The notes: generated by a model from the sequence alone, not told the origin. DNA of 64,000 nt from Bacilli bacterium (GCA_017450205.1 JAFSVF010000024.1:7996-71995); one strand, 5' to 3'. Shown: positions 1,505 through 5,263, counted from the first letter of the stretch. Numbers and translations are program-made.

Positions 1505-1849
1505 TTACTTATTAAGTCCTAATAAACTAGATAATTTATTAGCAAATTGTGCTCCAAATAATTGTCTCAATGCTTCTGTTAATTCAGAATAATTCTTAAT
1601 TATATCATTTTCTAAAGCATAAATTAAATCTTCGAATTTTTGTAAAATTGAGTAAAAATTATCATCAAAAGCATAGATTATCTTTTTATAATCTAATCCT
1701 GATACTTTTAAACAAGCAGCACTCTCAATTAAATCTTTTCTAATAGAGCTATAATATCCTTTTGATATAATATCTCTTTGTTCTTTTAACGATTCAACTA
1801 CTCTTTTTAATTCAGCAGCACTAATTGAATTTTTTCCTGACATATTCAT
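1505..1849 (-). CDS. small alpha-helical protein, paralogue of 4042-4383 (ESAT-6/DUF3130-like by size and pattern)
   Basis: 114 aa. The C-terminal IIKNYSELTEALRQLFGAQFANKLSSLL aligns with IIPNYENLSTEIKALFDNNFADKLTQLL of the 113-aa protein. The N-terminal ..SAAELKRVVESL.. resembles WXG100/LXG helix 1. Confidence 0.55.
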   Translation of the reverse strand: MNMSGKNSISAAELKRVVESLKEQRDIISKGYYSSIRKDLIESAACLKVSGLDYKKIIYAFDDNFYSILQKFEDLIYALENDIIKNYSELTEALRQLFGAQFANKLSSLLGLNK

Positions 1850-1861
1850 AAATACTCACCC

Positions 1862-2380
1862 CTATTTTATACTCTCAACTGAAGCAAGTGTTTTAGATTG
1901 ATTTTCTTTTACCATATCTCTTGCTTGTTCATAAGTACTACATAATAATTCTAAAGCTTCGATTGTATTATGAACTTTACCATCCATACTAGTTAGTTTT
2001 GATGTATATACAGCACAATCATCACCAACCCATGAATTATTAAGAATAGAAACATTGCGTTTTGTTTCGCCGTCCCATGAGCTCTTAATCTTAGAGATAG
2101 ATTGTCTTAAGTCTTGAATTATTCTTTCTAATTGATCATAAGTTATATCTAAATCCAAGTGCACTATTTGAACACCATAAGCAGGTTGAATTGAAACACC
2201 ACCAGCACCAGGCATTTGTGGCGGATATATAGTCCCAGTAGAACCTGTTGGTGGAACAGCTACTCCATATTTTGGTTGAATATGAACTGGAACAACTCCA
2301 TATTTTGGTTGTGCTTGAACAACTGAACCAATATTTACAGATGTTATTTTTGCACTATTTATATAAGTACCTGTTTTCAT
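1862..2380 (-). CDS. WXG100-like protein with N-terminal QPKYGV repeat region
   Basis: 172 aa. The N-terminal half carries QPKYGV, QPKYGV and QPAYGV plus a Pro/Gly-rich linker. The C-terminal ~95 aa is helical with two W-x-G motifs (SSWDGE, NSWVGDDCAVY). AGGAGAG SD upstream. Confidence 0.6.
   Translation of the reverse strand: MKTGTYINSAKITSVNIGSVVQAQPKYGVVPVHIQPKYGVAVPPTGSTGTIYPPQMPGAGGVSIQPAYGVQIVHLDLDITYDQLERIIQDLRQSISKIKSSWDGETKRNVSILNNSWVGDDCAVYTSKLTSMDGKVHNTIEALELLCSTYEQARDMVKENQSKTLASVESIK
2171..2311 (-). repeat. in-frame peptide repeat QPKYGV x2 + QPAYGV
   Basis: CAACCAAAATATGGAGT occurs twice exactly and CAACCTGCTTATGGTGT once on the minus strand (aa 24-70 of the 172-aa protein). 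Confidence 0.85.
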
Positions 2381-2423
2381 ACTAACACTCTCCTACTCTT
2401 ACATTCTAGCATACTTTTTTTTG

Positions 2424-3785
2424 TTATTCAACAAATTGTTCACACAAAATATCTTTCATACACATATTAGGTTTGTTTTCTTGATAATTCCAAGTATGAA
2501 AAGAATCTCCACGACAATACTTAAAACTCTTACAATTCTTACATTTTTCATTGGTTGTAAGTCTCTTTTTTCTAAATATTTCGTATTTATTTTCCCATGT
2601 GTCAACAAAACTGTCAGTTTTAATATTTCCTTGTACAAGTGATGAATCTCTAACATTAGGACAGACACAAATATCTCCATTAGCTAAAATACTACCAATA
2701 AAGATACCGGCTCCACAAATGAAACTATGATCTCTTAATATTTGCTCATACTTTAACCCTAGATAATGACTGCAATCATAATCGACAATCATTTTACCTT
2801 CTAGACGTTTTTCACGAATGAATTCAAACATTTTAATAAGACCTTCTTTATCAAGTAATATTCCATCATTATCATAAGCCCTTCCAATAGGATCAACACA
2901 CATTACACGCCATTCTTTTATACCTTTTTCTAATAATAATTGATATATATCTTCTAATTCATCTAAATTCTTTTTATTAGCAACAGTAGTTATTTGAAGA
3001 GATTTTAAAGTTTCTAAATCTTTTAATAAATCTATCGCATTCATAATTTTATCAAAAGAACCAGGAACTCTTCTGAAACTTTCATGTGTCTCTTTTAAAC
3101 CATCTAAACTTATTGAAATACTCTCCATATTAGTACGACGATACTCATCAATAATTCTCTTATTTATAAGCATACCATTAGTAGTCATACCCCATCTAAA
3201 ACCAAGACTTACAGCATATTCCATAATATCAAACAAATCTTTACGCATTAGAGGTTCTCCTCCAGTTACAGTTAGGAAGACATTATTTGCTCCATAATGT
3301 TCATGAATCTCCAATAACGTTTTCTTTAAGTCTTCAGCACTTATTTCATCTTTTGGTATCTTATAACCACAACTACTACCACAATGTTCGCATTTAGCAT
3401 TACATCTTAAAGTAACCTCTAAAAATAAATTACTTAAGACCGGATGTTTAATTAATTCCTTTACAGTATCGGCAGTTATATCTAAGTCTTTTTTCTTTGC
3501 TTTAACCACCTTTTTTGTTAATTTATCATCTAAATCATTATAATTATGTGCAGAACAATATAATTGTTGTCTTTCAAGAGCTTCATAATAATCAGAAATA
3601 CTATCAACAAAATCAGAAGCATTAGATAAAGCTTCAACAAAATTTTCTTTATTTTCACCATCTAATAACTTAAAATCACTTGCCTCATCTTCTTTTACTT
3701 CTTTTTTTAATGATTTTATTTGTTTCTTTAAATTTTTAAACTCTTTCACATCATGATTTAATTCATCTTTCATTTCTTCAAGCAT
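2424..3785 (-). CDS. radical SAM/SPASM-domain protein with ~115-aa N-terminal helical extension
   Basis: C128-x3-C132-x2-C135 (CNAKCEHC), GGEPL, TTNG and ISLDG motifs. C-terminal Cys cluster CGAG..GDICVC..CKNCKSFKYC. Its ATG overlaps the upstream stop by 1 nt. Confidence 0.85.
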   Translation of the reverse strand: MLEEMKDELNHDVKEFKNLKKQIKSLKKEVKEDEASDFKLLDGENKENFVEALSNASDFVDSISDYYEALERQQLYCSAHNYNDLDDKLTKKVVKAKKKDLDITADTVKELIKHPVLSNLFLEVTLRCNAKCEHCGSSCGYKIPKDEISAEDLKKTLLEIHEHYGANNVFLTVTGGEPLMRKDLFDIMEYAVSLGFRWGMTTNGMLINKRIIDEYRRTNMESISISLDGLKETHESFRRVPGSFDKIMNAIDLLKDLETLKSLQITTVANKKNLDELEDIYQLLLEKGIKEWRVMCVDPIGRAYDNDGILLDKEGLIKMFEFIREKRLEGKMIVDYDCSHYLGLKYEQILRDHSFICGAGIFIGSILANGDICVCPNVRDSSLVQGNIKTDSFVDTWENKYEIFRKKRLTTNEKCKNCKSFKYCRGDSFHTWNYQENKPNMCMKDILCEQFVE

Positions 3786-4033
3786 TAAACTACCTCCTGC
3801 TCATTATCTACTTTTTCTATTTGCCACAAATTACGTAATATTTCTAATTGATCAATAATGCTAGTAATTGTAGTATCAGTATTTTTAATTTTCTTAATAA
3901 ATTCATCACATATTGTATCATTCCATGAAGCTTTTAAATTTTCAATATCATAGATATTTATATCAGACCAAATTTTATGTATCTTTTCTGAAAGCTTATC
4001 TATTTTTGCAATTATTTCATCATTTTCTTTCAT
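3785..4033 (-). CDS. small helical WXG100-like protein
   Basis: 82 aa. SWNDTICDEF sits at the position of the W-x-G turn. Translationally coupled to the rSAM gene. Confidence 0.5.
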   Translation of the reverse strand: MKENDEIIAKIDKLSEKIHKIWSDINIYDIENLKASWNDTICDEFIKKIKNTDTTITSIIDQLEILRNLWQIEKVDNEQEVV

Positions 4034-4041
4034 ACAATCAC

Positions 4042-4383
4042 CTACTTAGTATCTGTTTCTAATAATTGAGTTAATTTATCAGCAAAATTATTGTCAAATA
4101 ACGCTTTAATTTCTGTTGATAAATTTTCATAATTAGGAATAATTTTATTTAAAAGAACATTAGTCAAGTCAGTAACATTAGTATCTAATTCTGAAAAAAG
4201 TTTTTTTAGTTCTTTGCTAACCTCATTAACTTCTTTAGAATAATTAGTTAATTTTATTTCACTAGTTGTTAAAATATCAACCAATGATTCAGTATAAAGA
4301 TCTAAAATATCGTTTTTTTCTTGAATTATATTATTAGTAATTACTTTTAATTCTTCAGTTCTAACTAATACTTTATTATTCAT
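4042..4383 (-). CDS. small alpha-helical protein, paralogue of 1505-1849
   Basis: 113 aa. Shares a C-terminal motif with the 114-aa protein. Starts 1 nt after the DUF362 stop. Confidence 0.55.
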   Translation of the reverse strand: MNNKVLVRTEELKVITNNIIQEKNDILDLYTESLVDILTTSEIKLTNYSKEVNEVSKELKKLFSELDTNVTDLTNVLLNKIIPNYENLSTEIKALFDNNFADKLTQLLETDTK

Positions 4384-4384
4384 C

Positions 4385-5263
4385 TTAAACCTCTATAAGA
4401 TCATATTCCCTAGAACCAATTCCTAATTCAGCAGCACGTTCGATTGTATGAATACCATGTCTAGAATTAACTCTCTCCATAAAATGCTCTTTACCTGGAT
4501 CATCACTATTTTCAACAATATCTATGCAAGCCTGATCAATAGCAACAGGATCAAGTGATATTAAAATACCCATATCTTTCATACAAGGATCTTCAGCAAC
4601 TGCACAACAGTCACAATCAACACTCATATTAGCCATGACATTTATAAATACCATATTACCTTTAAAATAATCAACTACTGCTGAAGCAGCTTCAGCCATA
4701 CTTTCTAAGAAATGATCTTGAGGAGGCAAATTATCCCATAAACTATATTGATCTTTATTAGTTCCGGCAGAATGAATCCAACTCTTTCCAACACTAGAAG
4801 CACAACCAATAGATAATTGCTTTAGAGCTCCTCCATAACCTCCCATAGGATGTCCTTTAAAATGAGATAGTACTAACATTGAATCATAGTTTTCAATATT
4901 TTTACCTAAATAATCTTCTTTTAAATGAACTCCATTTCTTACTGGAATAGCAATATCTGGTCCTTCTGCATCCATTAAATCAAAATCAAACATCTTACTC
5001 CAACCATGATTTTCAATAGTTTTTAAATGCTTTTCTGTTGTATTTCTTTCTCCTGCATAAGCGGTATTACACTCTACAACAGTTCCTTTTACATAATCAA
5101 TCATTGGTTTCATAAATTCTGGTTTTAAATAATTTTGATTACCTTCTTCTCCTGAATGAACTTTAACTGCTACTTTACCGAGTAACTCTTTACCAAGCAT
5201 TTTATACATTTCAACAAGTTTCTCAGGTGTTACCTCTTTACAAAAATATACTTTAGCTTTCAT
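4385..5263 (-). CDS. DUF362-family (putative Fe-S) protein
   Basis: N-terminus MKAKVYF..VAVKVHSGEEGN..ECNTAY and a C-terminal CDCC cluster match my memory of the DUF362/COG2768 family. GGAGGGA SD. Confidence 0.65.
   Translation of the reverse strand: MKAKVYFCKEVTPEKLVEMYKMLGKELLGKVAVKVHSGEEGNQNYLKPEFMKPMIDYVKGTVVECNTAYAGERNTTEKHLKTIENHGWSKMFDFDLMDAEGPDIAIPVRNGVHLKEDYLGKNIENYDSMLVLSHFKGHPMGGYGGALKQLSIGCASSVGKSWIHSAGTNKDQYSLWDNLPPQDHFLESMAEAASAVVDYFKGNMVFINVMANMSVDCDCCAVAEDPCMKDMGILISLDPVAIDQACIDIVENSDDPGKEHFMERVNSRHGIHTIERAAELGIGSREYDLIEV

Follow-up and report, generated by a model that had tools for sequence, protein, structure and literature searches.

A radical S-adenosylmethionine (rSAM) enzyme with a SPASM domain is encoded together with a WXG100-fold protein and three further small helical proteins in a conserved five-gene cassette on the minus strand of a 64,000-nucleotide DNA stretch from a Bacilli bacterium (GCA_017450205.1, JAFSVF010000024.1:7996-71995; this whole stretch is called the window). 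The order of the genes, the folds and the paralogy of their products and the conservation of the cassette are established, and so is a statistical association of Tyr-Gly (Y-G) repeats with the genes next to this rSAM clade. By analogy with enzymes that splice tyramine out of peptides, we propose, with a probability of about 0.5, that the enzyme matures the 172-amino acid (aa) protein of the cassette in the manner of a splicease, at the Y-G repeats of its disordered tail.

The 172-aa protein (1862-2380, minus strand) is the probable substrate. Its C-terminal half (residues ~76-172, 1865-2155), for which the initial annotation had listed the W-x-G motifs SSWDGE and NSWVGDDCAVY, gave sub-threshold WXG100 matches over residues 77-155 (PF06013, E 5.6e-4 to 3e-3; TIGR03930, E 1.3e-4). 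The PF06013 score of 18.1-20.6 bits is below the gathering threshold of 27.3, and 11 of the 59 homologues have a precomputed match to this family. In an AlphaFold2 model built with the alignment of these homologues, residues 1-70 are predicted to be disordered (pLDDT ~40), followed by a helix (81-114), the turn S-W117-V-G119-D and a second helix (120-171) at a pLDDT of ~90. Comparison of this hairpin with the PDB using Foldseek resulted in 32 top matches that were all EsxA/EsxB/ESAT-6/CFP-10 (Esx/WXG100) structures, with TM scores of 0.7-0.9. As modelled, the C-terminal half is a WXG100 helical hairpin, and the motifs as well as the WXG100-like character described at the outset were thus confirmed. 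Within this domain, the family keeps C122 without exception and C147 almost without exception.

The tail in front of the hairpin varies in length and sequence among the homologues and is predicted to be disordered, with the Y-G repeat as its conserved element. Three X-Y-G repeats are present in the repeat region of the 172-aa protein (residues ~20-75, 2156-2323, minus strand): AQPKYGVVP (Y27, codon 2300-2302), IQPKYGVAVPP (Y38, codon 2267-2269) and IQPAYGVQI (Y68, codon 2177-2179). In the family as a whole, 212 sites in 48 homologues (0-7 per protein) yield the logo [IV][VI]-Q-P-[KA]-Y-G-V, and Val at position +2 is kept in 176 of them. Within the 64-kb window the repeat is confined to the 172-aa protein.

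Six tightly packed open reading frames (ORFs) occupy positions 1505-5263 of the minus strand. Since the gaps between them (1, 8, -1 (an overlap), 43 and 12 nt) fit a single transcription unit, such a unit is plausible. A DUF362 gene (4385-5263; PF04015, E 7e-51) is followed by the genes of a 113-aa helical protein (4042-4383), an 82-aa helical protein (3785-4033), the rSAM/SPASM enzyme (2424-3785), the 172-aa protein and a 114-aa helical-hairpin protein (1505-1849). All of them were found where the initial annotation had placed them, including the single nucleotide after the DUF362 stop codon and the rSAM ATG, which has one base in common with the stop codon of the 82-aa gene. The cassette proper, without DUF362, is present in all eight related loci inspected. 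The order 113-82-rSAM (long form)-172-114 is kept in L001, L021, L042, L079/L080 and L098, and L002, L086 and L099 hold a rearranged or partial version; the flanks vary from locus to locus (amylase/DAGK, gap/pgk, rpoB). In every homologue locus inspected, the rSAM gene lies directly upstream of the 172-aa homologue. WXG100 matches recur in the divergent rSAM loci L039, L041 and L084, so that the combination of WXG100-like proteins with an rSAM/SPASM enzyme, which had been read from the window, is real and conserved.

The enzyme itself (453 aa in its long form) matches Radical_SAM (PF04055, E 6e-24) and SPASM (PF13186, E 9e-8). As already pointed out from the window, the core carries C128x3C132x2C135, continued by H-C-G-S-S-C139, and a SPASM-like Cys cluster; C128, C132 and C135 (CX3CX2C) and the seven C-terminal SPASM cysteines (338, 357, 375, 415, 418, 424 and 442) are invariant across 16 homologues. 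The core (residues ~97-453, 2427-3497, minus strand) is preceded by the Lys/Glu-rich extension noted earlier (residues 1-96, 3498-3785), which contains 15 K, 12 E, 11 D, one G and no P. This K/E/D-rich stretch is clade-specific. Two forms of the enzyme exist: a long one of 445-457 aa and a short one of ~365 aa, which is much commoner and lacks the N-terminal stretch. The cores of both forms are 55-63% identical, and the extension was found only alongside substrates of the 172-aa type with a WXG domain. Among the NCBIfam models the best match was TIGR04133 (315.4 bits, below its cut-off of 425). AhbD scored 148 bits, NirJ2 133 bits and TIGR04103 117.8 bits (cut-off 725), and the models of the sactipeptide and ranthipeptide synthases match weakly. 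The nearest solved structures are a BlsE-like decarboxylase, SkfB, MoaA, anSME and PqqE (E 1e-16 or weaker); a splicease structure is not present in the PDB. PF22208 (Csm6 CARF) marks on some homologues were dismissed as spurious, being sub-threshold matches within the rSAM domain, and a search of a phage collection found no homologue.

The remaining three proteins fall into two groups. The families of the 82-aa and the 172-aa protein are linked by reciprocal phmmer matches (E 7e-5 to 1e-4), and W29 and W44 are invariant in their joint hairpin alignment, in which the 82-aa protein has W-N-D instead of W-x-G (within the previously listed motif SWNDTICDEF, which is present). Searching the PDB with the joint profile ranked ESAT-6 and S. 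aureus EsxA first, although weakly (E ~0.07). Judged from these alignments, the 82-aa protein is a WXG-like paralogue of the 172-aa hairpin, and three of four members of its family hold a Cys at the C122 position. The 113-aa and 114-aa proteins are, by phmmer links via their homologues (E 1e-10 to 1e-5), paralogues within a small orphan helical-hairpin family. A word-indexed protein search with the 114-aa sequence returned near-identical copies only; a full HMMER search was required to reveal the family, with 169 representatives among 1.84 billion proteins. AlphaFold2 predicted helices at 11-49 and 54-110 of the 114-aa protein, joined by a turn at 50-53 (pLDDT 83).

The initial annotation had described these two proteins as beginning like helix 1 of ESAT-6/LXG proteins, a resemblance for which we found no significant sequence or fold support: comparison with families including WXG100, DUF3130 (Lap1) and DUF3958 (Lap2) gave no match with E < 0.001, their profile retrieved generic helical matches only from the PDB, and Foldseek found no significant fold match (best E 0.77, probability 0.63 or lower). 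The family alignment has no conserved Cys. In some proteins a 113/114-type domain forms the N- or C-terminal module of a longer low-complexity protein, and one member of the 114-aa family carries VQYGPG repeats and has a bona fide WXG100 gene downstream. The 114-aa protein is probably a partner of the WXG-like hairpin. As hhalign comparisons among the 113/114 family, the sets C16, C54, C55N and C3N, the WXG-like domain and the rSAM N-terminal extension all stayed below 6% probability, a common origin of the hairpins cannot be claimed.

Tyr-Gly repeats beside the rSAM clade

The association of Y-G repeats with the enzyme was surveyed in 45 loci of the rSAM clade, in which genes within two positions of the rSAM gene were counted as adjacent. 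The strict motif occurred at 151 sites in 55,092 residues of adjacent genes and at 3 sites in 84,719 residues of the other genes. With the relaxed motif, at least two sites were present in 35 of 172 adjacent genes compared to none of 330 other genes (Fisher p 4e-18), and 33 of the 45 loci have a neighbour with at least two Y-G motifs. The settings in which this adjacency was seen include a gap-pgk operon, the vicinity of rpoB and conjugative elements.

The carriers of the repeats are mutually unrelated families with the motif as their only common feature. They comprise proteins of the 172-aa type, large multi-domain proteins encoded beside a coupling protein of a type IV secretion system (T4SS) and a MerR regulator in conjugative-element-like loci, tail-anchored proteins that have a helical N-domain and are accompanied by a helical partner of 130 aa, and proteins with WXG- or LXG-like N-domains. 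Their common pattern is hydrophobic/K/A-Y-G/A-hydrophobic-P in tandem, for example PEDNVPQxVYGIPD, VQP(K/L)YGVxxPP, LLYGPP, VVYAGP, VIYAPP, TVYGPP and SLYAAP. What stays constant across the families is only the Tyr with the small residue that follows it, and position +2 varies between V, I, P, A, T and G.

Two of these settings deserve a description of their own. In the loci L003-L023 (e.g. L010:3429-9702 and L016:2378-12474), short-form rSAM genes lie in conjugative-element-like surroundings, usually in the order MerR regulator, T4SS coupling protein (PF02534), sometimes an ADP-ribosylglycohydrolase, rSAM, a modular protein of 157-1231 aa and unannotated genes. The modular protein has no Pfam match, and its domains are linked by KYDIxPEDNVPQxVYGIPD repeats. 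In L024, L026, L028, L033, L034 and L046 (e.g. L033:3986-5864), a divergently transcribed pair is situated between MiaB-like and RecD2-like genes. One gene of the pair encodes a 126-157-aa helical protein. The product of the other combines a helical N-domain of ~95 aa with a C-terminal transmembrane anchor and has a Pro/Thr-rich linker containing Y-G or Y-A-G-P repeats.

The motif also occurs beside relatives with 30-37% identity in other phyla. TIGR04133 enzymes are 32-37% identical to the window enzyme, and in all three partner lipoproteins examined an x-Y-G-x-P motif follows just past the lipobox (PCEYGSPH, LCEYGTPS and SCYGMPEN), which suggests that this motif is a target site of TIGR04133 enzymes. 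These lipoproteins, annotated as radical SAM-associated putative lipoproteins (L087:2569-3411, L088:3077-3466 and L090:3026-3514, from Parabacteroides, Treponema and Phocaeicola), carry the motif a few residues from the lipobox Cys. In Agathobacter rectalis, the small ORF preceding the relative ends in GPVMYGTGVRM, and an MFS transporter is encoded downstream. This ORF (L089:2704-2910), unannotated and 68 aa long or possibly shorter, ends in NLFGPVMYGTGVRM and lies 80 nt upstream of the rSAM/SPASM gene; it looks like an unannotated precursor of a peptide made by the ribosome and modified after translation (RiPP). Next to a Nostoc PlpX-family gene, the core of the Nif11 precursor reads GSIALYGLPPELF and includes IALYGLPP, and two of three DUF1843 peptides adjoining a GDL-motif maturase carry MLYGG or KPYGV.

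All five Y-G-associated rSAM groups have the signature C-N-x-x-C-x-H-C-G-S in common, which is absent from the MftC, heme-like, SCIFF and B. thuringiensis PqqD-associated sequences compared. A rough neighbour-joining tree (a distance method applied to few sequences) placed the five groups together with 56% bootstrap and TIGR04133 with the clade of the window enzyme with 67%.

Proposed maturation and competing explanations

Spliceases of the PlpX type are rSAM/SPASM enzymes which have been shown experimentally to excise a tyramine equivalent at X-Y-G (PMC10533398, PMC11414181). Their activity requires an activating helix, contributed by a Y protein or by the leader, and this helix can be fused to the enzyme (PMC11414181). 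Working splice tags are PIRPLYGLPI and AVAAGYGVVFP (PMC10533398); written as PIRP-L-YG-LPI and AVAA-G-YG-VVFP, they resemble the repeats in the window.

The system is best described as a splicease-like rSAM/SPASM enzyme whose natural substrate would be a WXG100-fold protein with a Tyr-Gly repeat tail. The five genes form a self-contained unit of a 113-aa hairpin, an 82-aa WXG-like hairpin, the rSAM enzyme with its extension, the 172-aa probable substrate and a 114-aa hairpin. For the steps past the genomic association, namely that Y-G is targeted, by what chemistry, and what the helices do, we infer the following. The cytoplasmic enzyme would modify the Tyr of the three Q-P-(K/A)-Y-G-V repeats, most likely by tyramine splicing, leaving keto-amide residues. 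Helical-bundle contacts that recruit or activate the enzyme may form among its own N-terminal extension, the WXG100 domain and the three small hairpin proteins, and these contacts might later serve export or oligomerisation and assembly. The initial annotation had suggested the helical-hairpin proteins as substrates or partners of a radical modification. For the 172-aa protein the role of substrate is indeed very probable, although the motif sits in the disordered tail (residues ~20-75), to which the initial annotation had not referred, and not in the hairpin. The 82-, 113- and 114-aa proteins contain no Y-G motif and are for this reason more likely partners or recognition modules than substrates.

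Several observations weigh against this proposal. Between 8 and 12 of the 45 loci have no clear Y-G neighbour, and some carriers have Y-A instead of Y-G (VYAGP, IYAPP, LYAAP). The window enzyme is only ~29% identical to the Nostoc PlpX-family member, its score with TIGR04103 is no better than with the AhbD or MftC models, and the node joining it to the spliceases has a bootstrap of 56% in the tree of few sequences. Since membership in TIGR04103 was tested and the score fell short of the cut-off, the claim is that the enzyme works like a splicease, not that it belongs to the PlpX family. Furthermore, the cassette contains no protease or exporter gene, and the window no gene of a type VII secretion system (T7SS): a Pfam scan found no EssC/EssB/EsaA/YukD-type domain (including FtsK_SpoIIIE) among the called genes of the 64-kb window or in the related flanks, which is in agreement with the absence of EssC/EsaA/EssB-like genes reported from the window before.

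The same Y-G target could be subject to other radical chemistry, such as a C-C or C-O cross-link between Tyr and a neighbour (cyclophane type), epimerisation or another modification of Val +2, or beta-hydroxylation. The association data apply equally to these reactions, the enzyme is in sequence no closer to spliceases than to other SPASM families, and the retention of Val +2 in most sites of the 172-aa family would suit them. That rSAM/SPASM enzymes use different reactions on short repeats is known, for example from the cyclopropylglycine synthases, which are reported to act on TVGG repeats (PMC10878394). Position +2, however, varies across the carriers and includes the Gly of VYAGP, a residue lacking the C-beta that a three-residue cyclophane would require, and the nearest group with proven chemistry on X-Y-G are the spliceases, so that we regard a different reaction as unlikely. 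If the enzyme is instead not linked to these proteins as substrates at all, it could have a small-molecule or cofactor role next to, for instance, T7SS-type or surface proteins that share a linker motif. The high conservation of the core across many gut Bacilli (the 55-63% identity given above), unusual for a peptide maturase, fits such a role, as do the general similarity to the heme-pathway SPASM enzymes AhbD and NirJ2 and the several loci lacking a Y-G neighbour. This explanation is quite improbable given that the adjacency spans unrelated carriers in settings as varied as the gap-pgk operon, rpoB and conjugative elements, that none of the 330 background genes of the same loci carries two motifs, and that the same motif stands beside relatives in other phyla.

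A modification of the hairpins themselves (the C-terminal half of the 172-aa protein and the 82-, 113- and 114-aa proteins), for instance through thioether bridges or different staples between conserved cysteines of the WXG-like domain, is favoured by the conservation of C122 and C147 and by the Cys at the C122 position in most 82-aa family members. SPASM enzymes include hairpin-stapling sactipeptide and ranthipeptide synthases, whose models match the window enzyme weakly. Typical rSAM substrates are disordered tails, whereas a folded helical bundle of 100 residues is atypical. Moreover, the C1, L033-type and L040-type proteins carry Y-G repeats without this Cys or the WXG fold, some WXG-like partners lack the Cys (DATAY in the 480-aa protein of L002, GDAAKNY in L084), and the 113/114 family lacks a conserved one. 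As neither the Cys nor the fold is common to the other neighbour families, this reading is weakened, and we consider it very unlikely.

Returning to the splicease-like maturase, a more far-reaching version, possible but doubtful, has the WXG100 hairpin take over the part of a leader or docking module within the substrate itself: Esx-like bundles would form with the enzyme hairpin and the small proteins, and the product would be a multi-ketoamide protein, possibly exported without a classical signal. Many uncultured gut and rumen Bacilli would make this product, with several backbone alpha-keto-beta-amino acid (electrophilic ketoamide) residues, and it would be the first WXG100 protein with a post-translationally edited backbone.

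If the proposal of a splicease-like maturase is true, tyramine splicing or a related radical edit at Tyr-Gly would reach beyond small cyanobacterial and proteobacterial RiPPs to full-size proteins in abundant uncultured gut and rumen Firmicutes. The edited proteins would be ESAT-6-like proteins, products of conjugative-element-like loci and, in Bacteroidota and Treponema, lipoproteins, which would provide a testable function for the orphan family TIGR04133 and for the >1000 homologues of the window enzyme. Bundling of helical hairpins instead of a PqqD-like RiPP recognition element (RRE) would be a new mode of maturase recruitment. A WXG100-fold protein tied to a dedicated modifying enzyme would be a first for T7SS research, and the role of multi-ketoamide proteins would be raised as a question, with protease inhibition and covalent capture as candidates.

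Transcription signals and genomic surroundings

Upstream of the DUF362 start and its AGGAGG site, the -10-like boxes TACTATAAT and TGTTATACT are located at 5282-5303 (minus strand). The sequences named as -10 boxes in the initial annotation are therefore present together with AGGAGG, but they amount to a resemblance to the consensus, as shuffled sequence yields promoter-like sites at least as often as this region does. A further promoter-like site, TTGAAT-17-TAGAAT with an upstream TG, was found at 2403-2431 (minus strand) inside the 43-nt gap before the 172-aa gene and could drive separate transcription of this gene. At the other end, 3' of the 114-aa gene, an AT-rich hairpin with a T-run (~1468-1495, minus strand) is a plausible intrinsic terminator, as had been suggested: it has an 8-bp stem, -9.3 kcal/mol and a z of -2.1. 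A stricter, G+C-dependent terminator scan did not detect it because the hairpin is too A+T-rich for a generic scan of this kind.

DUF362 is probably co-transcribed with the cassette here. Its gene adjoins the cassette only in the two closest loci (L001 and L021) and is absent from L002, L042, L079, L086 and L098; as a member of the system it was rejected for this reason and is taken as a passenger gene. In the 79%-identical locus (L021:94-4485), a 1463-aa ORF without Pfam match lies directly upstream of DUF362, where the window has an alpha-amylase gene.

The DNA has a G+C content of ~25%. The nearest genome record, 99% identical, is a rumen metagenome-assembled genome labelled uncultured Erysipelotrichaceae. 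The window also codes for a sortase, a GerA-type germination protein and a signal peptidase, and the host is therefore a walled Firmicute. The only Rfam matches of the window are two tRNA genes (35075-35238, minus strand), none being located in the cassette. At 49250-54664, the sortase is clustered with an unannotated 396-aa protein, a weak match to Peptidase_M73 (camelysin/TasA-like), an S26 signal peptidase and a 776-779-aa protein with Flg_new repeats, a group that looks like a surface-fibre or pilus-like assembly locus. Two adjoining large ORFs at 35848-40194 (748 aa and about 680-695 aa) have no recorded Pfam match.

Comparison with known systems

Among the characterized systems, the likeness is to the spliceotide/splicease systems (PlpX, PcpX and RhaX/RasX; TIGR04103 = IPR026482). 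In both cases a SPASM-type rSAM enzyme without a canonical PqqD-type RRE stands beside a substrate with one X-Y-G motif or several in a hydrophobic, Pro-rich context (LYGLP, GYGVVFP), and both share the C-N-x-x-C-x-H-C-G-S signature. The helical activating element of the spliceases may be paralleled here by helical modules, for which the N-terminal extension, the 82-, 113- and 114-aa proteins and the WXG domain are candidates. Besides the low identity and a score far below the TIGR04103 cut-off, the differences concern the substrates, which are proteins with a WXG100 domain and a repeat tail and not peptides with a Nif11 or NHLP leader, the three accompanying helical-hairpin proteins together with the ~96-aa helical extension of the enzyme itself, and the hosts, which are gut and rumen Bacilli. 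The initial annotation had regarded the pairing as without known precedent. Our literature search likewise found no report of an rSAM enzyme paired with WXG100 proteins, but spliceases are known rSAM/SPASM enzymes acting on XYG motifs. A survey from 2022 of YG-rich ORFs in rSAM/SPASM neighbourhoods, which as summarised in PMC10849128 and PMC10533398 reported 939 predicted systems besides 27 confirmed ones, from 189 genera, may include the present clade.

The closest named family is TIGR04133 (rSAM_w_lipo), with which the window enzyme shares the grouping in the tree and partners carrying the x-Y-G-x-P motif. A search of the literature for a function of this family found none published in the searched library. 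The window enzyme remains under the family cut-off, and the partners differ: those of TIGR04133 are lipoproteins of the Sec/lipobox type in which one motif precedes a beta-rich domain, whereas the neighbours in the window are helical proteins of cytoplasmic type without lipobox, with tandem repeats in the 172-aa protein.

In comparison with the WXG100/ESAT-6 family (PF06013) and the LXG-Lap modules of type VIIb secretion, the window proteins stay below the HMM threshold, no T7SS core gene accompanies them in the window or the related flanks, and no relation of the 113/114 family to Lap, DUF3130 or WXG100 proteins was detectable. In contrast, the helix-WxG-helix hairpin of the 172-aa protein and a second small hairpin protein encoded next to it resemble Esx pairs, and in some relatives the hairpin is the N-terminal part of a longer protein, an arrangement also seen in LXG effectors.

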